From Promethearchaeota archaeon (GTDB taxonomy: Archaea > Asgardarchaeota > Lokiarchaeia > Sigyniarchaeales > SOKP01): a stretch of 64,000 nt of DNA. The position numbers and the translations under genes were made by a program. Each line of letters begins with the position of its first letter. Positions within the stretch are counted from its first letter, which is position 1. The notes beneath the pieces are model-generated. The model worked only from the letters and a program-made list of their open reading frames with translations. It did no database searches and was not told where the DNA came from. Below are positions 22,546-40,981 of the stretch, piece by piece. The stretch spans positions 290,084 through 354,083 of the forward strand of contig JAHPZA010000004.1 of NCBI GenBank assembly GCA_019058445.1, read 5' to 3'.

Positions 22546-22560
22546 AATTGTTTCTCCATT

Positions 22561-24817: not shown

Positions 24818-24921
24818 TCTTTTTTAATACATTTTCATAAATATTAGATCACTCATTTTCGTTTACTTTAATGGATTAGAGGTGAGGTGTATTTATAAAG
24901 AAGGAACGTCATTATCTACTC

Positions 24922-26811
24922 ATGGCAAATTTATCCACTAAATCTGTAGCCAAGGTAAAGAGAGTTAGCAAAAAAGAGATACAAAAATTAAAAAAAGAAG
25001 GATATATCATTTTTTCTTCTCATAATCACACTAATTTTTCTGACGGCGTTGATTATCGTGAGGTTATTGATACTCTTGTTAAAATTGGAGTAAATCTAAT
25101 TGCACTCACTGATCATAACAATATGCGAGTAGCGGAATATGCAAAAACCTATATCGAAGATAAATACCCCGACTGTGGTTATTTATGCGCTGAAGAAGTT
25201 GATAGTCATTATGGTTGTGTTCTCGGTTATGGTTTACAAACAGAGATTCTTTTTGAAGGTGAGGAAAAACCCCCTATTAAATCAATTATTGAAGATATCC
25301 ATGAACAAGGTGGTTTAGCTGTTGTTGCTCATCCATTCCATCCTTTAGAAGGGATCTTTAGACCTTTTGGGGGATTAAGAATATCAGAAATCACTAAATT
25401 GAACTTTGATGGAATCGAATTTTTTCATGCAGATCTTCCCCCATTCCTCAATAATATGTGTTCTACTCTTGTGAAATTGCGACCACAAATGTTTCTTTTA
25501 GGAGGGGATGATGCCCATACAATTCATCATATAGGAAGATATTTGAATTTAGTTGGACCAGATATTGATGATGTAAATAATCTTGATGACATTTTAAAGG
25601 CTCTAAATAAGCGAAAAACAACTGTTCTCGAATTAAGAGGATGGGTTACTCGACCTTTTCAGACGTTGCCAGGGTTTAAAGATATTTTTATTAACAAGGG
25701 ATTAAAACGAATTAATGCTTTTGCGGGAATTTATGGTCTTTTTAAAGGTATACATTTTCAGCATGAATCAATGGGGTGGATTCCAAGAACAGTTCAGGAA
25801 TTCAAAGCGGAACTTCTGCAAGTTATCCAGACTATGAACATTAACACTATCCGGCTTGATGCTATGCGAACCGAGAGTAGAGCATATGAATTTGCATCAT
25901 TGGGAAAGGAACTGGGATTAAATGTAATACTTTCTCCTAAATATGTTTATCCTAGGGGGCTATCCAAACCTCAGTTAGATGAATCTTTGACTTATGATGA
26001 ATTTGAAGATTTTTGCTTGGAACATGCTCAAAGAGCACAAAAAGCGGGGGTGGATATTTTTTGTGTGGGAAATGAACTCACTCTAGAGCTAAGTGATGAT
26101 AAATCAGGTCATTTAGAAAGGCTGCATGATGACTTTTTCTCACAATTTGCCCCTTCTAGTTTAGAGATGATCCCGGGTCTGGGTGCTACTTCCATTGCCA
26201 AGCTGGGGAAGCTTAGAAAAAAGAAGTTTAGACTCACTACATATTTGGAAAATTTATCTAAAAAAGTGAGGAATTATTATAATGGGATGGTTTCCTATGC
26301 TGCTGGCTCATGGGAAATAAGAGACGTCCCTTGGAAGCATTTTGATCTTATATGTTGCAATCTATTTTACAGCGATTTATTTTTAAAGTACGTTGAGGTT
26401 TTACCAGGTCTGAAGATTATAATTCCAAAAGGTAGCCCGTCCGTACGAGCCTCTCACTTATTTCGTCAAAACATACAATATCTCAAAACCTTTAAAAAAC
26501 CAGTCATTATTTCGGAATTGGGTTTTCAGACAGTCACTGATGCGATACAAGTTGGTCCAATACCCATTCACCATCATAAGAATTTCGAACAATTCAAATA
26601 CGATGAAAATGCACAATCAAAAGCTTTTTCAGAAGTCTTTAATTTGTTGGAAAAGGATATCTTTGTTAATGGAGTGATCATTCATAAATGGAGAGATCTA
26701 AAAGAAGAGGGTTTCGGTTTAATACACGCTAATGGTATCTATAAACCAGCATGCAAAAATATATCAGATTTTTTTAAAACGTGGACTATCTCATATTCCA
26801 ATAATAAATAA
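24922..26811 (+). CDS. PHP-family phosphoesterase fused to a clan GH-A-like glycoside hydrolase TIM barrel
   Basis: N-terminal HNHT..SDG, TDHN, AHP and GGDDAH; C-terminal VGNEL (acid/base) and ISELG (nucleophile). Confidence 0.75.
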   Translation: MANLSTKSVAKVKRVSKKEIQKLKKEGYIIFSSHNHTNFSDGVDYREVIDTLVKIGVNLIALTDHNNMRVAEYAKTYIEDKYPDCGYLCAEEVDSHYGCVLGYGLQTEILFEGEEKPPIKSIIEDIHEQGGLAVVAHPFHPLEGIFRPFGGLRISEITKLNFDGIEFFHADLPPFLNNMCSTLVKLRPQMFLLGGDDAHTIHHIGRYLNLVGPDIDDVNNLDDILKALNKRKTTVLELRGWVTRPFQTLPGFKDIFINKGLKRINAFAGIYGLFKGIHFQHESMGWIPRTVQEFKAELLQVIQTMNINTIRLDAMRTESRAYEFASLGKELGLNVILSPKYVYPRGLSKPQLDESLTYDEFEDFCLEHAQRAQKAGVDIFCVGNELTLELSDDKSGHLERLHDDFFSQFAPSSLEMIPGLGATSIAKLGKLRKKKFRLTTYLENLSKKVRNYYNGMVSYAAGSWEIRDVPWKHFDLICCNLFYSDLFLKYVEVLPGLKIIIPKGSPSVRASHLFRQNIQYLKTFKKPVIISELGFQTVTDAIQVGPIPIHHHKNFEQFKYDENAQSKAFSEVFNLLEKDIFVNGVIIHKWRDLKEEGFGLIHANGIYKPACKNISDFFKTWTISYSNNK

Positions 26812-26836: not shown

Positions 26837-28255
26837 TTATTTGTCCAAAAGTCCAAATTTTTTGAGTCCTTGCCTCATATCGGGTTGAAACGGTCCTGGA
26901 GTCCCCTCTATAAACGCTTCAATAATATCTTGATTATTGACTTCGTGTGACTCTCTTTTTTTCGCTTTTTCTTCCGCGAGTGATGTTATTGCCATTCTTG
27001 CCATTGATTGAAATTGAGGGGGAGATAATTTGATTAATTCATTGAAGATTTTTTCAGTTTCAGGATCCCATATCAGCTCTGATTTTCTCTCTTTCTTGGT
27101 TTTCGTTGAATCTACTCCAAATTCACGGCTTGTCACAATATCATTTAGATAATCCTTTAAAGATTCAACATATCGGGTAGATTCTTCTTCATCAAGGAAT
27201 ACTGCCTTTTTTGCCCAATCCTCGCAATAGGTACATTCACCGCACATAGCCACACAATTTTGTTTTTTAAAGAAATCTATAAATCCGTCAAGTTTCGTAT
27301 TGTCTATAATTAGTTTAGATTTAGATTCTTTTCCTAGGGTTTCACTTATTTTTGCATTAGGATCCTTTTGTTCCAGACCTCCGAATGACATCGAAAATCC
27401 TTGAATAATATCCACAAGATTTCCATGATATTCACGGGAAGCAAATGCTTTTACTGCTCTGACAATCCATTCAGTTGACATGCGTCGCCCTGCGATTTTA
27501 AAATCATCAATTCCAATCGCTTCATAGTGGGAAAGGTCTTCAGGTCGAATCCATCGTGCTTTTATAACTTCCGTTGGATCAGAAAATTTAATAATACTAC
27601 AATTTAAAATGCATGTATCGATATAATTACGCTCGAATTGTTGATGGGTCTGAGAGGCATGTCCAAGTATATTATAATGATAATATCTAAATGGACATTG
27701 ATAAAGACACCCATCAGTTAAAAGTAACACGATTTTGCAATTAGTTGCTTCCTTGATTTTTTCTAAAGTCTGGAAATCTCGGTTTATCATTACATCAGGA
27801 GTTATCTCATCCGCGCCTAGCATTTCATATAATTTTGCCCGATTCACACTATTAATATGGGCAATAGTAGATACACGAATTTTTAGTTTAGGAAATTGTT
27901 CCTTAATAAGCTGTATTAGAAAAGGAATAGTAACAATTACATTATCAGTTCCTATATCACTAATCCATTGAATGTATTTAAGCAGTTCTTTATGATATTG
28001 CGAATTATATTCCATATTATTCATGCAAGGGGCATTCAATAAATAAGAAAATTCCATTTTATTCTCATGAACCTTTTTGATGTACTCAGCAATTTGCTCT
28101 TCTTGTATTGTTTTTAATAAGAATGAGGGACGACCTCCTCCGACAAGTGTGTGATCAGCAACCCCATACAAACTAGCAACCGGATATTTTGCCAGTTCTT
28201 CTATAAGGTTAAAATCCCAATTCGTTGCTACATGAAATTGAATTTTTTTCACCAT
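26837..28255 (-). CDS. U32 family protein (Fe-S hydroxylase-like, UbiU/UbiV/RlhA/TrhP superfamily) with C-terminal PCP_red/DUF2621-like domain
   Basis: GGGR, LNAPC, GCLYQCPF, CILNC, WIRPEDL and FKIAGR. The last ~78 aa (LIWDPETEKIF...TPGPFQ) match the shared domain. Confidence 0.85.
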   Translation of the reverse strand: MVKKIQFHVATNWDFNLIEELAKYPVASLYGVADHTLVGGGRPSFLLKTIQEEQIAEYIKKVHENKMEFSYLLNAPCMNNMEYNSQYHKELLKYIQWISDIGTDNVIVTIPFLIQLIKEQFPKLKIRVSTIAHINSVNRAKLYEMLGADEITPDVMINRDFQTLEKIKEATNCKIVLLLTDGCLYQCPFRYYHYNILGHASQTHQQFERNYIDTCILNCSIIKFSDPTEVIKARWIRPEDLSHYEAIGIDDFKIAGRRMSTEWIVRAVKAFASREYHGNLVDIIQGFSMSFGGLEQKDPNAKISETLGKESKSKLIIDNTKLDGFIDFFKKQNCVAMCGECTYCEDWAKKAVFLDEEESTRYVESLKDYLNDIVTSREFGVDSTKTKKERKSELIWDPETEKIFNELIKLSPPQFQSMARMAITSLAEEKAKKRESHEVNNQDIIEAFIEGTPGPFQPDMRQGLKKFGLLDK

Positions 28256-28288
28256 TTTATATGTTTAAAATATTTCTCAATTTTATTA

Positions 28289-28675
28289 CTACTTAACTGC
28301 TTTAGCATGGGCTTTTGCATTAAGTGGTAATAACGGAGCGCATGCCATGAGTTTAGTGACGTCCCCTTCTACAACATATGTTCCGGACATTGTTGCTTGA
28401 ATTGGATCAGACTCACCTGAATTTACTTTTTTAATTGTCTCAAAATCCGTTTTGTGGATTACCTTTGGAGCATCTGGTCCTTTATATTCACCCATTCCCC
28501 AATTCATCTTGTCATTTTCAATATATTGCCAATAATTCATCTCTGGCTTGTCAGTTATGATATATTGAAAAATTAACGGAGCTATCGGCTCTAATAACTG
28601 CGTTAAATCAGGTAACTCATTATAAGCTTTCATGAAGCGTGTTAAATACGCTTTCCATTCTTCATTTTCATCCAT
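28289..28675 (-). CDS. SCP2 sterol/lipid-carrier domain protein
   Basis: 128 aa; GESDPIQATMSGTYVVEGDVTKLM matches the SCP2 C-terminal signature. Confidence 0.85.
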   Translation of the reverse strand: MDENEEWKAYLTRFMKAYNELPDLTQLLEPIAPLIFQYIITDKPEMNYWQYIENDKMNWGMGEYKGPDAPKVIHKTDFETIKKVNSGESDPIQATMSGTYVVEGDVTKLMACAPLLPLNAKAHAKAVK

Positions 28676-28775
28676 TTTTATTCAATCTTTTTAGTTTTTT
28701 AATTTTTTCGAATTTTTTTTAAAATTTAATCAAATTTGATATTTCTTTAACCTTCAGGGATAAAATTCCTTACTA

Positions 28776-29948
28776 TCATTTATAAGAATCAATTCCCGCT
28801 TTAGCACCCATAAACAAGAAATCTACCATAGTCCCATTATAGTCATTTTCGATTTTATAATAGAGACCGTTGGGCGTGAAAGTAATGCCATAGATAAACT
28901 TTCTCATTTCACTCTGGAATGGGGATTCTTCAACATATTTTTTTATGAGGGGATGAAAGTGCGTCGGAACTTGTTTTGAATCATGACATGCTATACCAAA
29001 ACATAGGCGCTCAATTCTAGACGAATCCCAGCTAAAAGTATAATTAAGATGGGCAGCTTGACAACATCTTTCCATTATTTCTTCAGATGCAATCTCAAAA
29101 CCTATGTCTTTCACGAGCGCTTTGCATTTCTCAGGTGTCGCTGTGGAAGGATCTCTTAGCATAAAATAGATATTTGTTGTCTCATGTAAAAAATCAAAGG
29201 CAAAAACAGCAAAAACAAATAATTTATGTTTTTTGAAGTATTCTTCATAGGTTTTCATGCTTTGTGGAATATATTTCATTGAAAAAATGGAATCAATAGG
29301 ACCGGGGACGATAAACGGCCAGATCTTTGATAATCCATTCCTTGCATCCAAATCAACACCATAACCCAAAATATCAAACGTATCAAATACTTCTAATATC
29401 ATTTTGTGAATAGCGTGCCCATTTTTTTCGATTAACCCTTCATTTATAGCAACTGTATATGGATCTGGATCATGGACTATCATCATTTCCACATATCTGA
29501 CAGAGACATCCCTATTTTCAACTGGCTTAGTAGTAGTTCTAATTGATACTGGAGAACCTGAGAAAAATTTCTTATAGGCATTGAGTCCCTTCCAAATAGC
29601 ATCTTCATTACATTTTACTCCTGTAAGTACCCCAAGCTTTAAAATATCTTTTACCATTTGATTTAGATCATTATTACATTTAAAATCAGATTTGATTTTG
29701 GGTAAATATAGTTCATATTCGACACCTAAAGCTAATAAATCTTCTATCATAGTTGGTTGAAAAGCGGGGGGTGTCACTTCAAACAAAGCGATTATAAGAT
29801 CTATTTCTGCGACATTTTTCCCATTTCTTTCTATACATTTCTTTTCTGCGTTCTCAAAGAGCATAGGTTTTATGACAGGTCTTACCATTTCTGGAATTTT
29901 TAAAACTAAGTTATTATATAATTTTTTGACTTCTGGTTGCCATTCCAT
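28776..29948 (-). CDS. soluble ABBA-family aromatic prenyltransferase (NphB/CloQ-like) with N-terminal PCP_red/DUF2621-like domain
   Basis: YGVDLDARNGLSKIWPF, FAFDFLHETTNIYF, YTFSWDSSRIERLCF and YYKIENDY match PT-barrel strands of NphB/CloQ-type enzymes. Confidence 0.8.
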   Translation of the reverse strand: MEWQPEVKKLYNNLVLKIPEMVRPVIKPMLFENAEKKCIERNGKNVAEIDLIIALFEVTPPAFQPTMIEDLLALGVEYELYLPKIKSDFKCNNDLNQMVKDILKLGVLTGVKCNEDAIWKGLNAYKKFFSGSPVSIRTTTKPVENRDVSVRYVEMMIVHDPDPYTVAINEGLIEKNGHAIHKMILEVFDTFDILGYGVDLDARNGLSKIWPFIVPGPIDSIFSMKYIPQSMKTYEEYFKKHKLFVFAVFAFDFLHETTNIYFMLRDPSTATPEKCKALVKDIGFEIASEEIMERCCQAAHLNYTFSWDSSRIERLCFGIACHDSKQVPTHFHPLIKKYVEESPFQSEMRKFIYGITFTPNGLYYKIENDYNGTMVDFLFMGAKAGIDSYK

Positions 29949-30011
29949 TTATTTTATTACCTCATTTTTTATTTTTAATTGACTTTTTTTGATTTCTATT
30001 TTTACTTGTAT

Positions 30012-31436
30012 TTATATTAGATATTTTGCGAATTGAATTTGGCTCAATTCAGCAAATCCTTCTGGATTATTAAAGCCAAGTCCTGGCATCATCCATCTAG
30101 GATTATTTATACCATACTCCCTAACCACTTGAAAGAGGTCAACCTCTTTGATTTTTGGAGAGATATAGAATTTTGGTTTTAGTAAATTTTCATTCTTTTG
30201 AATTACACCCTCTTGTTCAGCAATGAGTTGAAGAGGTGTATGAGGGTAGATTCTCATACCGATAAATACTATTACATCACCATCTCCTTGCCATAGGTTC
30301 CCTCTATAACTCTTTATTGTTTCTAACTGATTAAATGAAGCTCGAACCGTATCAAGAGTTTCTCCAGGTCCCCCAACTATAATATGAATTAATTGTTCAA
30401 TATCTAGCTCAAAGCATTTTTGTGAAGTGAGAATAGCTTCATCGGGGGAACGACTTTTTTTCATATTTCTTAACATCTCCTCTGAAAATGATTCTATTCC
30501 CGTTGCAAAATGTGAGGCACCGCTTTTTTTCATAAGGGGTATTAAATCAATAAACATTTTATTCGGCACATAATTCGCTCCCCAATTAATATCAACTTTA
30601 TGTTTTATAATTTCTTGACACGTTTCCTTTAAATGATTATAGTCTAAATTAAAAACACTATCTACAATAAACACATTTTGTATTTCATAATTGTTTACCA
30701 TTATATCAAGCTCCTCAGCAATTTTTTTTGGAGATCTATAACGAACAGTAGAGCCTTCAATGTACTTATAACTGCAGTAAATGCAATTCATTGGACATCC
30801 TCGTTTTGTTTGAATATTTCCCCAAGTAGGACCTGTTTTTTTCAATGGATCTATGAGATACGCTTCATTTTCAATCAACTCTCGTGTAGGAAATGGGAGC
30901 TTATCTAAATTTTCTATTCGCCATGGAGGTCTCTGATAATAGTGCCCCTTTTTATCGATAAAGCATATACCCATCTGAATTTTCTTTAAATCATTATGAA
31001 CTTTAAGCCGCTTCAGAATCTCGGCAAATACATATTCACCCTCACCTACTACTCCGATATCGTGTTTTAAATCTCTAAGGATTTCTTCTGAAAAAATTGA
31101 AAACCCAGCACCACCTAGAACTACTGGAATTTCTGGTTCTGCGATTTGCTTAATATATTGAATAATTCTTTTAACGGGTAGATAAAAAAATAAGTTTCCA
31201 GGGTAAGTTGTAGAATCAACATTCCGAATGGAAATACCGATTAAGTGAGGATTGAACTTCTCAATAGCGTTAGAAATGTCTCGTTTAACATCGTTACTGA
31301 GGGTTAAATCAAGTATTTTTACATCATGTCCTTGACTAATAAGATAAGCTGCAAGATATGCTTCTCCTAAAGGTGGGACCATTACATGGACTATTTCCCG
31401 ACTGCCAGAAAAGATTAATACACGCAAATTATCCAT
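30012..31436 (-). CDS. cobalamin-binding radical SAM protein (class B methyltransferase-like)
   Basis: PPLGEAYLAAYL, GISIRNVD, GEGE, RGCPMNCIYC and GPGET. ATG at 31436 is preferred over TTG at 31442. Confidence 0.92.
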   Translation of the reverse strand: MDNLRVLIFSGSREIVHVMVPPLGEAYLAAYLISQGHDVKILDLTLSNDVKRDISNAIEKFNPHLIGISIRNVDSTTYPGNLFFYLPVKRIIQYIKQIAEPEIPVVLGGAGFSIFSEEILRDLKHDIGVVGEGEYVFAEILKRLKVHNDLKKIQMGICFIDKKGHYYQRPPWRIENLDKLPFPTRELIENEAYLIDPLKKTGPTWGNIQTKRGCPMNCIYCSYKYIEGSTVRYRSPKKIAEELDIMVNNYEIQNVFIVDSVFNLDYNHLKETCQEIIKHKVDINWGANYVPNKMFIDLIPLMKKSGASHFATGIESFSEEMLRNMKKSRSPDEAILTSQKCFELDIEQLIHIIVGGPGETLDTVRASFNQLETIKSYRGNLWQGDGDVIVFIGMRIYPHTPLQLIAEQEGVIQKNENLLKPKFYISPKIKEVDLFQVVREYGINNPRWMMPGLGFNNPEGFAELSQIQFAKYLI

Positions 31437-31454
31437 CCTCAATTTTATTGTAAA

Positions 31455-32873
31455 TTATAACTTCGTTCTCTTTTCAATTAATTCGATTTCTTCTTCATGA
31501 GAAGCATTTATTTCGTTTCCATGATTATTTTCATGCCAACAGAAAGGGAATGACCCAAAAAAGTCACCTGTTATGTATTCTGCGGTCACACGACATCCTC
31601 CACCGCAATATTTAAGATGATGACATTTTGCGCATTTGCCTTTAATTTTTTTCCTGTCGCGTATATTCTTATAGAGCTGAGAATTTAAGATATCTTCAAA
31701 GTTATCCTTTAATCCATGACCAAGGGTTAATTTGGTAGGATATCCCGTTGGATATAATGTCCCTTCTACACCAACACCCATCATTGTTCTGCAAGCTAAG
31801 CACCCTACTCCCCATTCAAGTGCTGTGACTTCCTTATCATTCCTAAAACATTCCATAAAAGGCATCATCTCATAAATTTCATAAGCCGGTAAGGTTCCTG
31901 CTTCCCCTTCCCTAATCTTCTCAATCGCATGTTTATATTTATAATCATATAATCTCTTGTATTCCTCTTTATTCAGACCAATTTCATCCCAATGGATCGC
32001 AGCGCGATTTACTTTTACAATAGGCCTAAAAAAGGGTTGAGCCCCCCATTGTAATGATAAATCGTTGAGCTCCTGCAATTCATCAATATTTTGTTTCATA
32101 ACAGTTATAGATGCACACGCAAATAATCCGTATTTCAAACAATTTTTAATTGCTCTTTCAGCATATTCTAAGGAATTAGGAAAACCACGTATTTCATCAT
32201 TTTTCTTTGGATCAGTACTGTCAAAACTGACAAAGACATGACTTAATTCATTTTCTTTACACATTTTTGCAAATTCCTCATCAAATGCTACTCCATTGGT
32301 AATAATTGCATGATAGTATCCGTTTTCTTTACAATGTTTCATTAATTCACCAATGTCTTCTCTTAGAGTAGGTTCCCCGCCAAACCAAATGAAACAAGCA
32401 TGTCTACCTTGAGCTCTAAGTCCAGATTCTATATTATCCATTATTTGGCACCACTGTTCTTTTGTCAACTCCTCTCGAGGGGGCAGACCATCTGCAGCGG
32501 CACAATGCACGCATTTCATATTGCATCTATCTGTGACATACATCGCGAAATGAATATTTCCAGGATGAAAGGCTTTTTCCATTTTATCCCAGGATAATTT
32601 AAGTCGATCTCTTATTTCATTAATTTCAATATATCGCTCTACATCTATATCTAAGGATTTTAAATCTTCAACCATCATGGATTTAAAAGCTTCGGGGATA
32701 ATATCAAAAATTCCGGTAATTACATCTTCTTCATTCACATAAGATTCATTTCGTTCGATGCATCTTTTTTGAGCAGCTTCTATAATCATAGGTTTAACGG
32801 AAGGACGAAATCCTTCTGGCATTTTTTCTACGATTCTGGCAAATAATTTTTCTGTTTCTGGTTCCCATTCCAT
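31455..32873 (-). CDS. radical SAM/SPASM protein with N-terminal PCP_red/DUF2621-like domain
   Basis: CNMKCVHC, FGGEP and CAKCHHLKYCGGGCR. The real start is likely ATG 32873 (MEWEPE), matching paralogues and avoiding overlap. Confidence 0.92.
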   Translation of the reverse strand: MEWEPETEKLFARIVEKMPEGFRPSVKPMIIEAAQKRCIERNESYVNEEDVITGIFDIIPEAFKSMMVEDLKSLDIDVERYIEINEIRDRLKLSWDKMEKAFHPGNIHFAMYVTDRCNMKCVHCAAADGLPPREELTKEQWCQIMDNIESGLRAQGRHACFIWFGGEPTLREDIGELMKHCKENGYYHAIITNGVAFDEEFAKMCKENELSHVFVSFDSTDPKKNDEIRGFPNSLEYAERAIKNCLKYGLFACASITVMKQNIDELQELNDLSLQWGAQPFFRPIVKVNRAAIHWDEIGLNKEEYKRLYDYKYKHAIEKIREGEAGTLPAYEIYEMMPFMECFRNDKEVTALEWGVGCLACRTMMGVGVEGTLYPTGYPTKLTLGHGLKDNFEDILNSQLYKNIRDRKKIKGKCAKCHHLKYCGGGCRVTAEYITGDFFGSFPFCWHENNHGNEINASHEEEIELIEKRTKL

Positions 32874-32886
32874 TAAGACCCACCCA

Positions 32887-34254
32887 TTATTTACAATTTT
32901 CATGTTCATGATCATTTTTATGCCAACAAAACGGGAGAGCCGCTAAAAAATCACCAGTTACGTTTTCAGCATGGACCCTACAGCCCCCACCACATAAATC
33001 AAGATGATGACAAGTTGAACATTTCCCTTTTATTTTTCTATCTCTAATTTTTTTAAACATTTCGGTTTCCATAATCTCATCCCAACTTTGCTCAAGAATG
33101 TTGCCTAAGGTTAATTCAGAGGGATAATCGCAAGGGAATACATCTCCATTGGTATCAATCCCAGAAATTGAGCGGCAGGCTTGGCATCCTGTGCCCCATT
33201 CGATCGCAGTCCTTTCCTCATCATTTATAGGACACTCCATGAATGGCACCATATCCCATGTATAGAATTTATTAAGAGCCGATGCTTCTCCTTTTCTGAT
33301 GGCTTCTATAGCGTTTTTATATTTGAAATCATAGAATTGTCGATATTCATCCATACTTAAGCCGATTTCGTCCCAATTTAAATCCGCCGAACGTTGTTTG
33401 ATCAGGGGTCTGTAAAAGGGAATTACGCCCTTAGAATCAAAATATTTTTTTAAGTCTTCTAATTCATCGAAGTTCTCTTTTTGTGCAGTTACATTAGCAA
33501 TGGTAAAAAGCCCATATTTTGAAGCTAAATTTAGGGCTTTTTCCGCCGCCTCGTATGCTTTTGGATGCCCTCTAATTTTTGCAGCCCGTTTAGGATCTGT
33601 ACTATCATAACTAATAAAAACATGGCTCATCTTAACATCTGCGCATAATTTCGCCAGTTCTTCATTAAATAAAATTCCATTAGTTGCAAGTGCTTGATAA
33701 TAGCCCTTTTCACCGCAATATTTTATTAAATCTTTAAGATCTTTACGAATAGTAGGTTCTCCTCCAAACCATATATAACAACCTCGACGACCGCGTTTTC
33801 GTAAGCTGAGTTCAAGATCCTCAATAATTTCAATCCATGTTTCCGTGGGAAATTCTGGACGTTTCTCCATTACTGCGGCAGCACAATGAAGACAATTTTG
33901 GTTGCATCGATCTGTGAGATATAAAGTGAAATGATATACTCCTGGTAAAAATGCACCACTAATTTCTTCCCAAGTACGAGTATAATTTTTCCTAATTTCT
34001 GACAATTTGATATATCGTTTTGTATCAATTCCTAATTTTTTCAAATCTTGGACAACTGTTGGTTGAAACGCCTCGGGAGTTATTTCAAATAGCGCGGATA
34101 ATAGATCATCCTTGCTTACATAACCAGAATTCCTAAGTCGTGCTGTTTTCTCAGCTGCTTCACGCAACATAGGTTTTACAGCCGCACGAAATGCTTCAGG
34201 TACTTGTTCTGTGATGGTTCCATACATTTCTTCAATATCTTCTTTCCATTCCAT
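32887..34254 (-). CDS. radical SAM/SPASM protein with N-terminal PCP_red/DUF2621-like domain
   Basis: CNQNCLHC, FGGEP, CQAC...GDVFPC...CSTCHHLDLCGGGCR. ATG 34254 follows the SD GGTGA. Confidence 0.92.
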   Translation of the reverse strand: MEWKEDIEEMYGTITEQVPEAFRAAVKPMLREAAEKTARLRNSGYVSKDDLLSALFEITPEAFQPTVVQDLKKLGIDTKRYIKLSEIRKNYTRTWEEISGAFLPGVYHFTLYLTDRCNQNCLHCAAAVMEKRPEFPTETWIEIIEDLELSLRKRGRRGCYIWFGGEPTIRKDLKDLIKYCGEKGYYQALATNGILFNEELAKLCADVKMSHVFISYDSTDPKRAAKIRGHPKAYEAAEKALNLASKYGLFTIANVTAQKENFDELEDLKKYFDSKGVIPFYRPLIKQRSADLNWDEIGLSMDEYRQFYDFKYKNAIEAIRKGEASALNKFYTWDMVPFMECPINDEERTAIEWGTGCQACRSISGIDTNGDVFPCDYPSELTLGNILEQSWDEIMETEMFKKIRDRKIKGKCSTCHHLDLCGGGCRVHAENVTGDFLAALPFCWHKNDHEHENCK

Positions 34255-35310
34255 ACTTTTCACCTTAATTTTTCCTTTTTTTTGAACTTAATTATTTATT
34301 GAATTAAATAATAATACTATTTTATATTCAGAAGAATTACATTTTTTTTTCATTTTTGTATCCTCCCGTGTGATAGACTCATGAATATTAGGAGAAGTAT
34401 TAGTATTGGGAGGAAGACAACGTTTTTTTAAACCATAAATAAGGATTATTATAAAAACCAAACACAAATAAAATTTTTGTTGAAAATTAGAGATGTTGTG
34501 AAGTTTTAAATAGAATTTGTTATGCCGTGTAATGCGGATATAACTTTTGTTATTTCCATAATAGTTAGAGAGATTATTAATTCTTTTACTTAAAATCCAT
34601 TTTTTTCCTATTTTAATATTTAGAGATCTATTATTGCCTGTTGACAAATCCTCTAATTCAATTGCACTCTCAGGTTCGTTGGACTGACTTCGTAATTCTG
34701 CATTGTTTCTAAGATAGAGATCTAAAAAAGTAAACGTTCCTAAGTCATTCTTTAAGCACACATTTTTAACATAGTGATAAACACTAGAATCAATATGGAT
34801 AATTATGCTAATAATAATGAAGATATCAATTAACTGACCAATAGTTAGATGAATGAATTGATATTTTTCAGGTAAAAACCAGAAAAGGTTAATGTTAGGT
34901 ATAACTGGAAAAAAAAAAGAATTCCCTGATGTAAAATATTTCTCTAAAAAAGAAATTAAAACAGGAATATCCTTTAAAATCATGTAAATTATAGAAACTA
35001 AGAAAAAGGATGTAATAAAGATTAAAATCAAAATAACTTTTAATTTTTCAAGTTTATGATAATTTTTCATGTCTTTAACGCTCTACTTTCAACGAAATTT
35101 TAGATGAGTTTTACTTTTAAAGAATAATGTTTCAATATCTTGGTTAAATAAATTTGCAATTAATTAACTATTTATTATTATTGCTTTTTGAATTTTTTCA
35201 TCTATAATTGTCATTTTTGTAAGAAATAGTCCAATATAATTAAATTATGGTTAAAAAAGTGTAAGAATAAAAAAAATTAAAGGCTATATTATGTATAAAA
35301 TTTAATTATT
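34143..35310 (-). repeat. copy A of a ~1.17-kb diverged inverted duplication
   Basis: The reverse complement aligns by eye with 39780-40949, covering the upstream region, the 260-aa ORF and the first ~37 codons of the radical SAM gene. Confidence 0.9.
34288..35070 (-). CDS. uncharacterised 260-aa membrane protein, first gene of the operon (copy 1)
   Basis: Three hydrophobic segments; a full-length paralogue of identical length lies at 40021-40803. Confidence 0.6.
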   Translation of the reverse strand: MKNYHKLEKLKVILILIFITSFFLVSIIYMILKDIPVLISFLEKYFTSGNSFFFPVIPNINLFWFLPEKYQFIHLTIGQLIDIFIIISIIIHIDSSVYHYVKNVCLKNDLGTFTFLDLYLRNNAELRSQSNEPESAIELEDLSTGNNRSLNIKIGKKWILSKRINNLSNYYGNNKSYIRITRHNKFYLKLHNISNFQQKFYLCLVFIIILIYGLKKRCLPPNTNTSPNIHESITREDTKMKKKCNSSEYKIVLLFNSINN

Positions 35311-35343
35311 TTTTATTTTGTCTATGAGCTTAATCTTATAAAA

Positions 35344-36765
35344 TTGGAGGAGTCATGTTTGCGAATATTACTTATTAATCCAAATTATCCTAATGTTTTC
35401 ACATATGGGCCACAAGCAAGCATTCTCTTTCCCCCTTTAGGATTAGAATATATAGCAGCGTATATCGAAGATATTGCTGAAGTTCGTTTGCTCGACAATC
35501 GATTAAAAACAGGAAACTTAAGAATCATTGAAAAAACGCTGGAACAATTCCAACCAGATTATACAGGGATTAGTTGTAATTATTCATCTCAGATTAATAT
35601 TGCTTTGGGGATTGCAAATATTGCTAAAAAATGGGGTTCCCGAACTATTCTTGGAGGATGGCATCCTACACTAGTACCTGATGAAACTCTCGAACATTCC
35701 TCAGTGGATATAGTTATTAGAGGGGAAGGCGAATTGACTTTTCGGGAACTCATCCAAAAAAATAGCCCTATTGGAATCCAAGGTTTATCCTACAAGCAAA
35801 ATGGAAAGCAAATGCACAATCCTGATCGTGATTTAATGGATTTAAAACAGATTCGATGCCCTGACCGAGGCATTCGATTGTGTAGCGCAAATAAAACATA
35901 TAATTTCTTCGGATTTCCTGTAGAATGCATTGAGACTACCCGAGGCTGCCCTTACTCTTGTACATTTTGCTGCATCCACCATTTCTATAGGAATACATAT
36001 CGAAAACGCAAAGTTGAACACGTTATAACGGAATTAAATTCTAACGAGATACGAAATCGTGCTAGTCATATCTTCATTGTGGATGATAATTTTGTGGTAG
36101 ATCAAAAATTTGTCGCAGAGTTATGCGACGGTATAATCCAAACTGGCATCAATAAGTATTTTATGGCACAGGCACGCGTTGATATGATTGTTCATCATCC
36201 CGAAATTTTCAAGAAGATGGCTGATGCAGGATTTATTTATCTTTTTTTAGGTCTGGAAAGTTTTTCAGATCGCATCTTAAAGAAATTAAATAAACGTATT
36301 AAGTTTCAAGAAATTAAGTCAGCTTTGAGGATAGCTCATGATTATGGTTATGTTGTCCAAGGAAATATAATATTGGGTGCCGATCTCGAAGATACAAACA
36401 GAGATCTCCAATCTGTAATTGATATTACTAAAATTTTAGATATAGATTTCCCTACCTTCTCTATGCTGACACCTCTTCCTGGAACGAGCTTGATGGAAGA
36501 AGTAATGGAAAGAAACCTCTTACTCACTAATGAGTGGCATAACTTCAACTGGTCAGTTCCCGTTATTAAATATCCTAATCTATCAGCAAAAGAAATGAGT
36601 GATTATTTAGCCATGGCCTATGAAAAAACCTTTACCTTTAAAAGAGCTCAATTAGGATTAAAAAGGTTGGTTTTTGATCGAGGCGTAAAATTTCACATGT
36701 CTCGAATGAAACTCAATGATCTTATAAAAATAAGCGCTCACATGCTTAAAAATCTATGCAGATAA
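35344..36765 (+). CDS. cobalamin-binding radical SAM protein
   Basis: PPLGLEYIAAY, GGWHPT, RGEGE, RGCPYSCTFC, VDDNF and LGLES. Confidence 0.93.
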   Translation: MEESCLRILLINPNYPNVFTYGPQASILFPPLGLEYIAAYIEDIAEVRLLDNRLKTGNLRIIEKTLEQFQPDYTGISCNYSSQINIALGIANIAKKWGSRTILGGWHPTLVPDETLEHSSVDIVIRGEGELTFRELIQKNSPIGIQGLSYKQNGKQMHNPDRDLMDLKQIRCPDRGIRLCSANKTYNFFGFPVECIETTRGCPYSCTFCCIHHFYRNTYRKRKVEHVITELNSNEIRNRASHIFIVDDNFVVDQKFVAELCDGIIQTGINKYFMAQARVDMIVHHPEIFKKMADAGFIYLFLGLESFSDRILKKLNKRIKFQEIKSALRIAHDYGYVVQGNIILGADLEDTNRDLQSVIDITKILDIDFPTFSMLTPLPGTSLMEEVMERNLLLTNEWHNFNWSVPVIKYPNLSAKEMSDYLAMAYEKTFTFKRAQLGLKRLVFDRGVKFHMSRMKLNDLIKISAHMLKNLCR

Positions 36766-36841
36766 CTTTCCAATTTTAATTTCTTATGCATTGGGCAATT
36801 GTTATCAGTTTATCCTTTTAAATAACTCAATCATTAAACTT

Positions 36842-38329
36842 TTACTTTTCTTTCATTTTGGAATCTTTTGAGCCTGTAGTTAAAAACATGGGAGCAGTAG
36901 TTAAAAACAATAACATATTTGCATTTTTGATAGAAACTTTAGAAAAATTCTCAGTGTCATAATTTATTACATTATAGAAAAAGGATATTTTTGCTCTTTT
37001 AAAAATTTCGACGATCTCGAGAAAAGACTTATAGTTTAGTTTAATACCGAATGTTTCAGGAGATTCGTGTGCTGGAGAACCAGGAAAAATATGATAGGGT
37101 TCACTCATAATGGTTATTGGTTTGAAATTTGATGGGCCATATTTTAAAAGACATTTAGCTCCAAAATTAAAATCTTTAAGAACATCTATCCGTTTTTGAA
37201 ATGGAAATCCTATAGTTAGCCAAATTCGTAGGGGGATTTGATATAAATTTGCATGTTTTATTAAAGTATTAATTTGACTTTTAGGAAAGCGAAATGTTGG
37301 GTCACACACTTTAGCTATTTTTTGGTGAACACGCGAGGATAATGTGCGAGGAGAAATGCTGATTGAGGAATATTTACGAGTAAATGTTTTGTGAAATATT
37401 TTCCACATCTCTTTAGGAAACGGTAACCTCCATATCTCTAAATCTCCGCTAATCTCAAATTTTTCTTTTTGAATTAAACCAAATAATCTTTTCCAATATT
37501 TTAAACTCGCTGGATATGTACCATGCCCGAAAAATAGGCTTTCGATTTTATACTTGCTAAGAAGATAACTAATATCTTCTACTACATTATTTGGATTTCT
37601 AAGTAAGACCTTATTTCGTCCAGAATTCCTCTGCTGAGCTCTTTGACCTCCTCCACAATACGGGCAATTATAAGGACATCCTCTTCCAATAGGGAGATTG
37701 TAAGAGATTCCCATAATTTTTCTGCTGTATTCGACATATTTTTTCGCATTCAGAAGTGATGATAAGTTTGAAAAATTTAATGTATCCAGAGACTTCGCAA
37801 TATATGAAAGAGAATTTACTTTAATGTGTTTAGATGAATCCCGATAAGTTAAATTGGGAACAGAATCTAAAGGTAGGTTTTGATTAACCTTTTTTATAAA
37901 TTTTAGAAGAGGAACTTCACCTTCTCCTCTAATAATTCCATCAATTACGCTATAATATTTTAAGATTTGATCATGATAGTATGAAGCACTAAAACCCCCA
38001 AGAATCACTTTTACATGAGGTTTTATCTTTTTTACAATTTTAGCAATTTCGATGGCGCCATGTGCATTATGAATCCAATGTAAATCGATTGCACATGCAT
38101 TAAAATCAATATTTTTAAGATAATCAGACAAATTCCAATTACGATTTAAATATTTTTCAAAGGGATAATTTACTATTTTAACCCCAAAGCCTTCCCTCTC
38201 AAGGAAATCGGAAATAGCAAAAATACCCATTGGAATAAAAATATATTCCCCACGTTTAAATCTGGCATGTTTATTATGGGGATTTAACACTCTAGGAGGG
38301 TGTATGAACAGGATATCGAAGTTTTTCAA
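36842..38329 (-). CDS. cobalamin-binding radical SAM protein (paralogue of 42437)
   Basis: DILFIHPP, AIDLHW, RGEGE and RGCPYNCPYCGG. Confidence 0.9.
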   Translation of the reverse strand: MKNFDILFIHPPRVLNPHNKHARFKRGEYIFIPMGIFAISDFLEREGFGVKIVNYPFEKYLNRNWNLSDYLKNIDFNACAIDLHWIHNAHGAIEIAKIVKKIKPHVKVILGGFSASYYHDQILKYYSVIDGIIRGEGEVPLLKFIKKVNQNLPLDSVPNLTYRDSSKHIKVNSLSYIAKSLDTLNFSNLSSLLNAKKYVEYSRKIMGISYNLPIGRGCPYNCPYCGGGQRAQQRNSGRNKVLLRNPNNVVEDISYLLSKYKIESLFFGHGTYPASLKYWKRLFGLIQKEKFEISGDLEIWRLPFPKEMWKIFHKTFTRKYSSISISPRTLSSRVHQKIAKVCDPTFRFPKSQINTLIKHANLYQIPLRIWLTIGFPFQKRIDVLKDFNFGAKCLLKYGPSNFKPITIMSEPYHIFPGSPAHESPETFGIKLNYKSFLEIVEIFKRAKISFFYNVINYDTENFSKVSIKNANMLLFLTTAPMFLTTGSKDSKMKEK

Positions 38330-39484: not shown

Positions 39485-39520
39485 ATTCTTTATTTTACAT
39501 AATTAATGAAATAAAAATCT

Positions 39521-39748
39521 TTGGAATGGGAAAAAGAGACAGAAGAACTATTTGAAGGAATAATAAATAAAATGCCTGAGGGATTTCGTCCTTCTGTAAA
39601 ACCAATAATAATTGAGGCGGCTAAAAGTAGATGTATCGAGCAAAATGGTGGTGCTCATATTAATGATACTGATGTTATTACAGGGATTTTTGATATTATT
39701 CCTGAAGCATTTAAGAGGTTAAAAAAAAATATTTTTAATTACCAATAA
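39521..39748 (+). CDS. stand-alone PCP_red/DUF2621-like domain (free copy or remnant of the N-terminus of the 31455 radical SAM)
   Basis: KMPEGFRPSVKP and DVITGIFDIIPEAFK are identical to the 31455 protein, followed by an unrelated tail; TTG start. Confidence 0.6.
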   Translation: MEWEKETEELFEGIINKMPEGFRPSVKPIIIEAAKSRCIEQNGGAHINDTDVITGIFDIIPEAFKRLKKNIFNYQ

Positions 39749-39779: not shown

Positions 39780-40949
39780 AATAATTAAATTTTATACTTA
39801 TTATAGCTTTTAGTTTCTATTATTCTTACACTTTTTTTAACAAAAATTATACTATTATTATCTCTCTTACAAAAATGACAATTAAAAGCATGAAAAAATT
39901 CAAAAAGTAATAATACTAAATAGTTAATTAATCACTAAATTTATATAACCTAAATATTAAGATATTATTCTCGAAGATAAAACTCATTTAAAACTTCATT
40001 AACATTGGAGTGTTAAAGATATGAAAAATCATAATAAACTTGAAAAATTACAAGTTATTTTGATTTTAGTCTTTATTACTTCTTTTTTCCTTGTTTCTGT
40101 CATTTACATGTTTTTAACAGATATACCCATTTTGATTTCTTTATTCGATAGATATTTTACGTCAGGAAATTCTTTTTTTTTCCCATTTATACCTAATATT
40201 AGCCTTTTATGGTTTTTGCCAGAAAAATATCAAATAATAAATCTTACTTTTGGGCAATTGGTTGATATCTTCATTATTATTAATATAATTATCCATATTG
40301 ATTCTAGCGTTTATCATTATGTTAAAAATGTGTGCCTAAATAATGATACACGTTCATTCACTTTTTTAGATCTCTATATTAGAAATAATGCTGAATTACA
40401 TAGAAAGTCCCAAAAAACCGGTAGTTCAATCGAATCAGAGGATTGGTCAATGGGCGATATTGAATATATATATATCAATACAAAAAAAAATGGATTTTTG
40501 CGTAAAAGAATCAGTAATCTCTCTAACAATCATGGAAAAAAGGAAAGTTGCGTCAACATCAAGTGGCGCAACGAATTCTGTTTAAAAACGCACAATCTTT
40601 CTAATTTTCAACAAAAATTTTACTATTACTCTGCTTTTATAATATCCTCTTTTTATGGTTTAAAATATCATTGTCTTCCTCCCAATACTAATACTTCTCC
40701 TAATCTTTATGAATCTAAAACACAGGAGGATACTGAAATGAAAAAAAAATGTAATTTTTCTGAATATAAAAAAGTATTTTTAATCAATTCAATTAATAAT
40801 TAAGTTCAAAAAAAATGGAAAAATTAAGGTGAAAAGTATGGAATGGAAAAAAAATATTGAAGAAATGTATGGAACCAACACAGAACAAGTTCCTGAAGCA
40901 TTTCGTGCGGCTGTAAAACCCATGTTGCGTGAAGCAGCTGATAAAACAG
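39780..40949 (+). repeat. copy B of the ~1.17-kb inverted duplication
   Basis: Homologous to the reverse complement of 34143-35310. Confidence 0.9.
40021..40803 (+). CDS. uncharacterised 260-aa membrane protein (copy 2)
   Basis: Paralogue of 34288-35070, sharing YFTSGNSFFFP, IHIDSSVYHYVKNVCL and CLPPNTNTSPN. Confidence 0.6.
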   Translation: MKNHNKLEKLQVILILVFITSFFLVSVIYMFLTDIPILISLFDRYFTSGNSFFFPFIPNISLLWFLPEKYQIINLTFGQLVDIFIIINIIIHIDSSVYHYVKNVCLNNDTRSFTFLDLYIRNNAELHRKSQKTGSSIESEDWSMGDIEYIYINTKKNGFLRKRISNLSNNHGKKESCVNIKWRNEFCLKTHNLSNFQQKFYYYSAFIISSFYGLKYHCLPPNTNTSPNLYESKTQEDTEMKKKCNFSEYKKVFLINSINN

Positions 40950-40981
40950 AAAAAAAGATAAAAGAGGTTTTGAGAGATTAG
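40838..40981 (+). pseudogene. 47-aa truncated copy of the radical SAM N-terminal shared domain
   Basis: MEWKKNIEEMYGTNTEQVPEAFRAAVKPMLREAADKTEKKIKEVLRD*, near-identical to the start of the 34254 gene up to the duplication breakpoint. Not in the ORF track. Confidence 0.75.

Follow-up and report, generated by a model that had tools for sequence, protein, structure and literature searches.

Seven adjacent genes on the minus strand (26837-35070) of the window, the whole analysed stretch of 64,000 nucleotides from a Promethearchaeota genome, constitute a conserved and previously undescribed operon. The probability that they act as one operon, whose oxygen-independent pathway makes and modifies a small lipophilic aromatic compound bearing a prenyl group, is put at a little under 60%. 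Its output would be an aromatic lipid, prenylated, hydroxylated and methylated without oxygen. The observed basis comprises family and fold assignments, conserved synteny, genome co-occurrence, domain fusions and bacterial neighbour genes, from which we infer all chemical steps and their order, as well as the identity of donor, acceptor and product.

Gene order, distribution and a shared domain

The seven open reading frames were confirmed in the order given below, where DOM denotes an 85-residue DUF2621/PCP_red-like domain carried by four of the enzymes.

34288..35070, minus strand: TM260a, a 260-aa membrane protein and the operon's first gene
32887..34263, minus strand: SPASM radical SAM enzyme 2 (SPASM2); PF04055 80 bits, PF13186 42.5 bits; N-terminal DOM at 33994-34254
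31455..32915, minus strand: SPASM radical SAM enzyme 1 (SPASM1); PF04055 85.5 bits, PF13186 26.5 bits; N-terminal DOM at 32616-32873
30012..31442, minus strand: class B (B12-binding) radical SAM enzyme that lacks DOM; PF02310 68.9 bits, PF04055 77.3 bits
28776..29948, minus strand: soluble ABBA (PT-barrel) aromatic prenyltransferase (PT); PF11468; DOM at the N-terminus, 29694-29948
28289..28675, minus strand: free-standing SCP2 lipid-binding protein; PF02036 23.0 bits (cut-off 21.3)
26837..28255, minus strand: divergent U32 Fe-S protein (U32c); PF01136 partial; C-terminal DOM at 26840-27088

The tight packing and the enzyme families had been called in an earlier note on this DNA; the genes lie where it placed them, and Pfam and NCBIfam profiles bear out the calls (two SPASM enzymes, B12 radical SAM, ABBA prenyltransferase, SCP2 and U32). 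The note knew of no described pathway of such composition, and a literature search found no paper on the cluster. Intergenic gaps measure 12 to 100 nt. The single overlap, 29 nt between SPASM2 and SPASM1, vanishes if translation of SPASM1 begins at codon 15 (32873), the onset of DOM, which is likely its true start.

The grouping is no accident. The order SPASM-SPASM-B12-PT-(U32a-U32b::SCP2 or SCP2)-U32c is found again in 10 of 41 relatives, and in all at about 40 loci; in the majority of loci the B12 enzyme has SPASM on one side and PT on the other. The distribution is patchy, at about one fifth of the genomes in the host's family. Looser versions occur in one genome of Thermoplasmata and in others that carry the labels Bacillota, Thermoanaerobaculia and Deferrimicrobium, so that the earlier description of an archaeal operon is too narrow.

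The best evidence for joint action of the cluster enzymes, absent from the earlier note, is provided by DOM and the domain fusions. DOM is predicted as an all-helical five-helix bundle of the DUF2621/PCP_red type, and a profile search of the whole genome returned six matches, every one inside the window. Among 400 Asgard genomes it was found in 47, including all 32 that carry PF11468, which belong to a single class. Its placement on PT varies (N-terminal, C-terminal, or a free 90-aa gene alongside), and the enzymes are also fused to one another as U32::DOM::SCP2 (683 aa), U32::DOM::SPASM (857 aa), PT::DOM::SPASM (762 aa) and rSAM-SPASM::SCP2. Co-occurrence of the genes across genomes is likewise strong.

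A small non-catalytic domain on several unrelated pathway enzymes, present also as a free protein, is analogous to the RRE (PqqD-like) domains. It raises the possibility, considered very unlikely, of RiPP-like peptide or protein modification, in which DOM would recognise a precursor peptide that is then cross-linked by the SPASM enzymes, methylated by the B12 enzyme and prenylated by PT on a Trp or Tyr side chain. SPASM and B12 radical SAM enzymes are often peptide maturases, the weaker NCBIfam matches include MftC, PqqE and sactipeptide/ranthipeptide maturases, and the closest solved relatives of PT act on indoles. However, the short gaps leave no space for a precursor gene, and a conserved small ORF was looked for and not found. 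The Pfam search yielded no PqqD/RRE domain, and the DOM bundle differs from the winged helix of RRE domains; nothing in the cluster points to a peptide as substrate. Fusions of SCP2 lipid-binding domains to U32 and radical SAM enzymes point away from a peptide as well, as do the bacterial versions, which are accompanied by an IPP isomerase and an MFS exporter, not by peptidases.

The prenyltransferase and the proposed chemistry

By sequence comparison the window PT is a genuine PT-barrel relative. It matches PTase_Orf2 (PF11468) at E 9.6e-50 over profile positions 3-283 of 287, and among solved structures AmbP3, FamD1 and AmbP1 at E about 1e-41, the AmbP3/AmbP1 alignment spanning PT residues 96-379. 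Further matches are a phenazine-type prenyltransferase (4ee6, 2e-33), NphB (3e-23) and CloQ (2e-8). Nine residues (R146, R151, Y152, K208, N259, Y261, R314, K365 and Y370) are invariant in the family and identical in the AmbP3/FamD1 alignment. These solved proteins are soluble ABBA enzymes of bacterial secondary metabolism, AmbP1, AmbP3 and FamD1 belonging to the cyanobacterial hapalindole/ambiguine pathways, and with them the window PT shares fold and family over the whole barrel, together with conserved basic and tyrosine residues. AmbP1, AmbP3, NphB and CloQ all take small aromatic acceptors. In contrast to these relatives, the cluster PT is fused to or paired with DOM, occurs in archaea, and has radical SAM and U32 enzymes around it where theirs are tailoring enzymes that depend on O2.

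The bacterial versions carry further genes. Three loci have a type 1 IPP isomerase immediately behind PT (scores of 169, 157 and 165 bits, with a cut-off at 127), and one locus includes a DAHP synthase/chorismate mutase of the bifunctional kind, which scores 430 bits (cut-off 279); both are same-strand neighbours and putative operon members. An MFS exporter adjoins PT in two loci. Secondary-metabolite clusters often include an IPP isomerase and an exporter, a further likeness to the ABBA systems. One Thermoanaerobaculia locus lacks a U32 gene and has two P450 genes after PT-SPASM, in the place that U32 genes take elsewhere. None of the Asgard copies of the cluster contains an aromatic-precursor gene, which counts against the prenyl-aromatic reading; in its favour, the host genome encodes chorismate synthase and chorismate mutase.

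In the proposed pathway, PT would transfer a short prenyl group, with DMAPP as the likeliest donor or starter, to an aromatic acceptor from primary metabolism, probably shikimate-derived. The two AhbD/NirJ-like SPASM enzymes may then perform radical C-C or C-H chemistry on what PT has prenylated, such as closing a ring or removing a carboxyl group oxidatively, and the B12 enzyme would methylate an unactivated carbon. By analogy with UbiU/UbiV, U32c could hydroxylate the ring, with prephenate as a possible oxygen donor, while SCP2 would shield the greasy intermediate. DOM may serve on its four enzymes as a pathway-specific adaptor or lid, holding them to one substrate or assembly, and the small membrane protein may tether the system to the membrane. 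A mechanistic analogy, and only that, is offered by CloQ and CloR, which make the prenylated 4-hydroxybenzoate moiety of clorobiocin/novobiocin by ABBA prenylation of a shikimate-derived acceptor followed by two oxidative decarboxylations. CloR requires O2, whereas the corresponding steps of PT and the two AhbD-like enzymes would be radical SAM chemistry; CloQ is also the most distant solved relative of the window PT.

The best NCBIfam models are AhbD/AhbC/NirJ for SPASM2 (124-138 bits, well under cut-offs of 500-650) and NirJ2/AhbD for SPASM1 (about 139 bits, also under cut-off); SPASM1 lacks one SPASM-region cysteine present in SPASM2. With AhbC/AhbD/NirJ (alternative haem and haem d1 pathways) and MftC/PqqE the two share a radical SAM core and a SPASM auxiliary-cluster domain (E 1e-40 to 1e-27), but they score 96-139 bits against cut-offs of 265-650 and carry the additional N-terminal DOM; a tetrapyrrole pathway was not found in the genome, nor a precursor peptide in the operon. 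That the best-scoring named relatives are tetrapyrrole or peptide enzymes, all far below cut-off, counts against the prenyl-aromatic reading. Tetrapyrrole or planar-cofactor tailoring, with AhbD/NirJ-like and HemN-like enzymes remodelling side chains, DOM binding the macrocycle as in BchB/BchZ and PT adding an isoprenoid tail, is nevertheless highly improbable. NirJ2, AhbD, AhbC, NirJ1 and NirJ are the top matches for both SPASM enzymes, a HemN/HemW-like radical SAM gene accompanies the bacterial versions, and DOM resembles PCP_red of BchZ (TM 0.65, with a weak PF08369 match). Yet all these tetrapyrrole-enzyme matches fall 3- to 5-fold under curated cut-offs, and porphobilinogen synthase (PF00490), detected in 11 of 14 control genomes, was not found in the 92.6%-complete host genome. 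Prenylation of tetrapyrroles is moreover, to our knowledge, carried out by UbiA-type enzymes and not by PT barrels.

U32c, SCP2 and the quinone question

U32c matches Peptidase_U32 (PF01136) with 49.7 bits over profile positions 2-65 of 233 only, but its predicted structure is a U32 TIM barrel (pLDDT 86), best matched by the U32 protein Mk0906 (5d88; E 4.8e-12, TM 0.73 by target). Eight cysteines are invariant across 23 homologues: C77, C183, C187 and C219, and C334, C338, C341 and C344, the second motif being CX3CX2CX2C. The SCP2 assignment is marginal by score, which counts against the prenyl-aromatic reading; in a search with a profile of 20 homologues, three SCP2 structures rank first (E 0.005-0.011), and the window protein shares 85% identity with the C-terminal domain found in the U32::DOM::SCP2 fusion from a same-genus genome.

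In Proteobacteria, a prenyl-phenol is hydroxylated independently of O2 by UbiU/UbiV together with UbiT, an SCP2 protein, at the expense of prephenate (PMC6747719, PMC10990095), although direct in vitro hydroxylase activity is unproven even for known U32 proteins (PMC10990095). Both systems pair a U32 Fe-S protein with SCP2 near prenylation and methylation functions in anaerobes, both show U32-SCP2 fusions (ubiT-ubiU in Zymomonas, U32b::DOM::SCP2 in the window's relatives), and adjacent U32 paralogues in those relatives recall ubiU-ubiV. They differ in that U32c has the extra cysteine motif and DOM, the prenyltransferase is a soluble barrel rather than membrane-bound UbiA, methylation would run through radical SAM enzymes, a quinone-using complex was not found in the window's genome, and the cluster's lineages are Asgard archaea, Thermoplasmata and Bacillota. 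The window holds a single U32 and no UbiU/UbiV-like pair. On sequence grounds U32c is extremely distant from both proteins, which counts against the prenyl-aromatic reading: NCBIfam gives no UbiU/UbiV match at E <= 0.01, BLAST against UbiU of E. coli gives E 0.13, and for UbiV no alignment is reported at E <= 10. Two canonical U32 genes elsewhere in the genome fit an RNA-hydroxylase role better than U32c does.

A quinone-like redox carrier, one of the products first suggested, finds no direct support: neither NuoH nor MqnA turned up in the genome, the cluster varies and has a patchy distribution, and the window's one U32 is distant. Within the prenyl-aromatic reading, a specialised metabolite (for instance an antimicrobial, a signal or an additive to the membrane) is somewhat favoured, and a redox-active quinol/quinone-like lipid is given somewhat less than an even chance.

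Flanking genes and the membrane protein

The surroundings of the operon contain additional features.

35344-36765, plus strand: divergent B12 radical SAM gene, between TM260a and the next gene
36842..38329, minus strand: Ta0216-type B12 radical SAM enzyme; TIGR04190 255 bits, cut-off 500
39521..39748, plus strand: free 75-aa ORF, a truncated DOM copy closest to that of SPASM1, found in the whole-genome DOM profile search
40021..40981, plus strand: second TM260 copy (40021-40803) and relic of a SPASM2-type DOM (40829-40981)

The Ta0216-type gene probably extends the cluster; its orthologues (60-74% identity) adjoin it, in most related loci directly upstream of TM260 on the same strand. The neighbouring CDP-alcohol phosphatidyltransferase, GT2 and extra B12 radical SAM genes are lipid-gene-like and count against the prenyl-aromatic reading, as does the label of the B12 enzyme's nearest model, TIGR04072 'lipid biosynthesis B12/rSAM' (279 bits, cut-off 360; next BzaD, 202 bits). 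They suit a membrane-lipid tailoring island, in which the radical SAM, U32 and SCP2 proteins would methylate, hydroxylate or join through C-C bonds the isoprenoid lipids of the membrane or precursors of these, the CDP-alcohol phosphatidyltransferase and the glycosyltransferase would add head groups and PT would prenylate a lipid-linked acceptor. A 14-kb stretch holds four B12 radical SAM genes, whose best models are HpnR/BchE-like, Ta0216-like and TIGR04072; the CDP-OH phosphatidyltransferase (archaetidylinositol-phosphate-synthase-like, 67 bits) and GT2 adjoin the operon and are found again at 10 and 8, respectively, of 42 loci; SCP2 binds lipids; and the second TM260 copy runs into GT2 and B12 radical SAM genes. 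Such an island is still judged unlikely. The head-group genes stand at only about one quarter of loci, mainly in close relatives, and are missing from all PT-SPASM-U32 core loci labelled Bacillota, Thermoanaerobaculia and Deferrimicrobium. We know of no synthesis of archaeal isoprenoid membrane lipids in bacteria, yet the core occurs there, and the small aromatic acceptors used by AmbP1, AmbP3, NphB and CloQ also argue against it.

TM260a matches nothing in Pfam or NCBIfam, and homologues occupy the equivalent position in 24 of 42 loci. Conservation is confined to the N-terminal ~120 residues, with about three TM helices and the motifs SGxSxFxP and GxLxD; the remainder is hypervariable. The second copy (68% amino-acid identity) and the 50-aa DOM relic belong to an inverted duplication that now leads into GT2 and another B12 radical SAM gene. 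Between the two copies, codons 1-120 differ by 22 synonymous and 25 non-synonymous changes, and the remainder by 12 and 58.

Gene content and enzymes of the operon

Seven consecutive open reading frames occupy positions 26837-35070 of the minus strand. They are separated by intergenic gaps of 12-100 nt, with one overlap of 29 nt that vanishes if SPASM1 begins at codon 15, the start of an ~85-residue domain (DOM) present on four of the seven proteins. The open reading frame listing, Pfam and NCBIfam agree with the gene content described in the earlier note:

26837-28255, minus strand: divergent U32 protein (U32c)
28289-28675, minus strand: SCP2 protein
28776-29948, minus strand: ABBA prenyltransferase (PT)
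30012-31442, minus strand: B12-binding radical SAM enzyme
31455-32915, minus strand: radical SAM enzyme with SPASM domain (SPASM1)
32887-34263, minus strand: radical SAM enzyme with SPASM domain (SPASM2)
34288-35070, minus strand: membrane protein of 260 aa without family assignment in Pfam and NCBIfam (TM260)

PT matches PF11468 (PTase_Orf2) at E 9.6e-50 and 170 bits against a cut-off of 22, with residues 95-378 aligned to positions 3-283 of the 287 in the profile. Residues 96-379 match the solved PT barrels of AmbP3 (6e-41), FamD1-type enzymes (5e-41) and AmbP1 (1.5e-40), and more weakly the phenazine-type 4ee6 (2e-33), NphB (3e-23) and CloQ (2e-8). The earlier note had let its proposal depend on 28776-29948 encoding a PT barrel, and the sequence matches to solved barrels answer this with yes. 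Nine residues, R146, R151, Y152, K208, N259, Y261, R314, K365 and Y370, are invariant across 12 PT homologues and identical in the AmbP3/FamD1 alignment; the conserved basic and tyrosine residues of the barrel presumably bind diphosphate, as in NphB and CloQ. Membership of this family points to a probable aromatic acceptor, the recognised relatives with known function all taking one. To our knowledge, characterised soluble ABBA prenyltransferases come from bacteria and fungi only. The literature search found no paper placing such an enzyme in archaea, and an Asgard study from the Tibetan plateau that applied antiSMASH leaves prenyltransferases unmentioned. The presence of one within a conserved archaeal operon has a bearing on archaeal biochemistry.

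Both SPASM proteins exceed the Pfam cut-offs for PF04055 and PF13186, and the CX3CX2C radical SAM core and the SPASM motifs are readable in their translations. Their nearest named families in NCBIfam are AhbD, AhbC and NirJ, at 108-139 bits against curated cut-offs of 500-650, which places them outside these equivalogs. A tetrapyrrole substrate would fit these nearest relatives and the likeness of DOM to PCP_red, but no porphobilinogen synthase is found in the genome. De novo corrin synthesis looks unlikely, and cobalamin would then need to come from uptake or salvage. Within the window pair, the paralogues differ by one auxiliary-cluster cysteine (FPCDYP in SPASM2, YPTGYP in SPASM1). The B12-binding enzyme has the class B layout, with an N-terminal B12-binding domain (PF02310, 68.9 bits) and PF04055 (77.3 bits). 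Its nearest NCBIfam equivalog, TIGR04072 'lipid biosynthesis', is matched at 279 bits, below the cut-off of 360, with BzaD next. The 14 kb from 30012 to 43942 of the window contain four B12-binding radical SAM genes.

U32c is the weakest assignment. Its match to PF01136 (49.7 bits, cut-off 22.4) covers only the first 65 of 233 profile positions, yet a model built from 23 homologues (pLDDT 86) has its best fold match in the U32 protein Mk0906 (5d88; E 4.8e-12, TM 0.73 by target), with other, generic TIM barrels at E >= 3e-6, six orders of magnitude behind. The assignment of 26837-28255 to U32 is thus borne out by the TIM-barrel model and the PF01136 match. Two sets of cysteines are invariant across the 23 homologues, C77/C183/C187/C219 and C334, C338, C341 and C344, the latter forming a CX3CX2CX2C motif; their alignment with the ligand cysteines of UbiU and UbiV is too poor for the two to be equated. 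The NCBIfam models of UbiU and UbiV give no match to U32c at E <= 0.01, BLAST against E. coli UbiU gives E 0.13, and no alignment with UbiV is reported at E <= 10. Two further, ordinary U32 genes elsewhere in the genome score 193-215 bits with TrhP and 146-157 bits with UbiU, and because of these scores they are the better candidates for RNA hydroxylation, a role judged unlikely for U32c.

SCP2 passes PF02036 by a small margin (23.0 bits, cut-off 21.3). A profile of 20 homologues searched against the PDB returns SCP2 structures as the top three matches, at E 0.005-0.011 and over the full length. The protein shares 85% identity with the C-terminal domain of a 683-aa gene fusion, U32b::DOM::SCP2, from another genome of the genus. 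The arrangement resembles UbiT/UbiU/UbiV in that SCP2 is encoded together with U32, here between PT and U32c, and fused to it in such relatives. It differs in that the window operon holds one U32 protein instead of the UbiU/UbiV heterodimer pair, U32a adjoining U32b in relatives with a longer form of the cluster, and in that U32c lies outside the UbiU/UbiV equivalog families. Pelosi et al. did not find UbiTUV outside Proteobacteria (PMC6747719). The oxygen donor of UbiU/UbiV is prephenate, and in vitro hydroxylation has been shown for no U32 protein yet (PMC10990095).

The domain shared by four operon proteins

DOM is N-terminal on PT, SPASM1 and SPASM2 and C-terminal on U32c. Scanned singly against DUF2621 (PF11084, cut-off 27.7), two copies pass (30.3 and 28.1 bits) and two remain below (22.3 and 17.4 bits); one copy has a weak PCP_red match. 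The model from 21 copies is a confidently predicted five-helix bundle (pLDDT 85) that resembles a free DUF2621 protein cluster at TM 0.91 and, more distantly, PCP_red/BchZ at TM 0.65. In the ESM Atlas the same fold (TM 0.81-0.94) occurs in SPASM enzymes, PTase_Orf2 proteins and VOC enzymes, in a mostly bacterial U32 cluster of 321 members and in free DUF2621 proteins of 85-96 aa, and an FMN-reductase cluster matches at TM 0.73. Foldseek of the model against the PDB returns nothing at E <= 0.001, and the profile finds no relative among PDB sequences. The AAA+ lid domains (Z up to 8.9) and Nostoc asr4154 (Z 6.8) matched via VIA-align fall within the helical-bundle background and are rejected. 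We know of no function for DUF2621, and the literature search found no paper describing DOM.

At E <= 0.001 the family comprises 287 clusters among 1.84 billion representative proteins, many of them free-standing proteins of 80-105 aa. Four proteins of ~950-1600 aa from the family search (P0321, P0312, P0362 and P0324) carry five to nine tandem copies, a hint that the domain may act as a scaffold or in multivalent binding. All six DOM matches of the genome fall in the window, including two outside the operon:

39521-39748, plus strand: free, shortened 75-aa open reading frame, most like the SPASM1 copy
40829-40981: DOM relic of 50 aa

The former may function as a free-standing adaptor, as in loci L026 and L064, or be a rearrangement scar. 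Complex prediction of SCP2 with DOM scores 0.10 against a mark of 0.32, an answer neither for nor against. Present on PT, SPASM and U32 proteins and serving as a fusion linker, DOM is a testable candidate for a non-peptide counterpart of the RRE adaptor. A RiPP-like cluster would fit this RRE-like logic and the enzyme classes; however, no precursor gene is found in the operon, which has no small conserved open reading frame and no PqqD-type domain in Pfam, although a precursor may be encoded elsewhere, and the SCP2 fusions conflict with it.

Recurrence and variation of the cluster

PF11468 occurs in 10 of 41 close relatives, every one of the window's own family, and has no match in the three single-contig genomes of the same order. 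Across the phylum 32 of 400 genomes have it: 28 of the 134 in that family and three others of the class, with no match in the remaining classes searched. It is present in 13 of the 90 high-quality genomes, and DOM in 47 of the 400, including all 32 with PT, counts that are not independent because the genomes are related. Proteins were compared across ~20 kb fetched around each match. The usual order is a Ta0216-type B12 radical SAM gene, TM260, two SPASM genes, a B12 radical SAM gene and PT. In the long form PT is followed by U32a, U32b::DOM::SCP2 and U32c, and in the short form, to which the window belongs, by SCP2 and U32c. That the window holds a decayed cluster without U32a and U32b is rejected, because the short form recurs in at least ten loci and most of its PTs stand nearest to that of the window (identity 66-74%, reaching 70% or more in seven of nine; long form 63-69%).

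In 24 of 42 loci TM260 is the first gene of the operon, and only its first ~120 residues are conserved across them. A feature proposed for the protein is rejected, being shared by the two window copies only; the conserved N-terminus has no usable match in the protein atlas. Between the two window copies synonymous and non-synonymous changes are about equal over the first ~120 codons, and non-synonymous changes are five times more numerous over the rest. TM260 is a real gene. The second copy belongs to an inverted duplication (34143-35310 and 39780-40949) that holds TM260 (81% nucleotide and 68% amino-acid identity, both 260 codons), the region upstream of it and ~50 codons from the start of a SPASM2-type gene; this copy is now followed by a GT2 gene and a Ta0216-type B12 radical SAM gene.

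A wider scan, at one genome per species, finds relatives of 34-44% identity. Among archaea they lie on a Thermoplasmata chromosome and in an unclassified archaeon; the other genomes bear the labels Pseudobacteroides, Deferrimicrobium, Thermoanaerobaculia and Bacillota. A Polyangiaceae-labelled contig has a DOM-SPASM gene and no full-length PT. The loci compare as follows:

Thermoplasmata locus: PT with C-terminal DOM; DOM-SPASM enzyme; radical SAM-SPASM::SCP2 fusion
Pseudobacteroides locus: HemN-like radical SAM enzyme, three U32-DOM proteins, TIGR04072-like radical SAM enzyme, three DOM-SPASM proteins and a bare 298-aa PT; then, on the same strand, type 1 IPP isomerase (169 bits, cut-off 127) and bifunctional DAHP synthase/chorismate mutase (430 bits, cut-off 279)
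Two Bacillota loci: only DOM, free or fused, with PT and IPP isomerase; one with an MFS exporter
Thermoanaerobaculia locus: PT, DOM-SPASM and two cytochrome P450 genes, without U32
Metagenome contig with bacterial-type neighbours: U32-DOM, U32::DOM::SPASM (857 aa) and PT::DOM::SPASM (762 aa), with DOM as linker

The synteny that the earlier note had proposed to check is present, as an order that recurs in Asgard loci and as looser variants elsewhere. The neighbours of the operon, three more B12 radical SAM genes, a CDP-alcohol phosphatidyltransferase gene and a GT2 gene, suggest a lipid-tailoring island, but no more than a quarter of the loci have them, and the core is also found in loci from genomes labelled as bacteria.

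Beside the operon, 20754-26811 holds three paralogous small-GTPase genes and a pair made up of an AAA_5 ATPase gene and a PHP/GH113-like gene, an order kept next to the cluster in two same-genus genomes (loci L017/L032 and L023/L055). A LuxE/PaaK-like adenylate-forming enzyme of ~435 aa is encoded in eight Asgard loci (L028, L029, L033, L044, L045, L051, L054 and L061), directly adjoining the GT2 and CDP-alcohol phosphatidyltransferase genes in five of them; the window has no LuxE-like gene. Sulfotransferase genes occur in four loci and tandem zinc-ribbon proteins of ~185 aa in nine, with the window member at 44802-45272. The sequencing runs that match the stretch are sediment and soil metagenome DNA only, with no RNA run listed.

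Proposed pathway and its product

That PT, the SPASM enzymes, U32 and SCP2 work on a common target, or within a common assembly, is shown by their fusions and their co-occurrence. This target would be a greasy small molecule and not a peptide, as indicated by the SCP2 fusions, the IPP isomerase and the exporters. The P450 genes of the one U32-less locus fit a role of U32 as the hydroxylase in anaerobic versions of the cluster. Chorismate synthase and chorismate mutase are present in the window's own genome, and together with the chorismate mutase neighbour they fit an acceptor of shikimate origin or else the use of prephenate as oxygen donor. From the fusions, the lipid-type partners, the PT family, the P450 swap and the shikimate link, the reading chosen is an O2-independent pathway to a prenylated, radically tailored aromatic lipid, held at a probability of just under 0.6. 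PT would prenylate the aromatic acceptor, after which decarboxylation or cyclisation, methylation and hydroxylation would follow, with SCP2 as the putative carrier and DOM as a putative adaptor or lid; this order of steps and all substrates are tentative. No paper on the cluster was found in the literature search, in keeping with the earlier note, which knew of no described pathway of this composition.

The "quinone-like" product of the earlier note is not established, since U32c is far from UbiU/UbiV, no NuoH or MqnA is found and the cluster is patchy. The quinone pathway and quinone-using respiration that characterise UbiTUV-type systems are not detected by the searches for MqnA (PF02621) and NuoH (PF00146), neither of which is found in the 92.6%-complete genome, while the controls give matches. 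The cluster is present in only about a fifth of family genomes, copy number and content vary, and the bacterial versions travel with exporters; a respiratory carrier fits this pattern no better than a specialised metabolite. Should the pathway to a prenylated aromatic lipid be correct, a redox-active quinol/quinone-like product would have somewhat less than an even chance. Considerably less probable is the full version, in which Lokiarchaeia-type Asgard archaea and scattered anaerobic bacteria would produce, with no O2 at any stage and no step common to the Ubi or Men/Mqn pathways, a prenylated quinol/quinone-like redox lipid. Prenylation by a soluble PT-barrel enzyme would be combined with decarboxylation and methylation by radical SAM enzymes and with prephenate-dependent hydroxylation by U32, in one complex assembled by DOM as a new kind of pathway-specific adaptor. 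A redox-active product would change the view of Asgard archaea as purely fermentative or syntrophic.

The function of most U32 subfamilies is not known. If the proposed pathway is true, the cluster would be the third U32 context after ubiquinone and RNA, and the first of a specialised-metabolite-like kind, and would test the generality of prephenate-dependent hydroxylation. Other U32-DOM genes, without a nearby PT, accompany HemN-like, SPASM and B12 radical SAM genes. Two metagenome contigs (L066 and L071), with no PT within 10 kb, carry a different conserved cluster, in which two U32 genes of the same clade are joined by three B12 radical SAM genes, a NusG-like gene and genes for a methyltransferase, an ABC/CbiQ-type transporter, an RND adaptor, a beta-propeller protein and a 188-aa protein.
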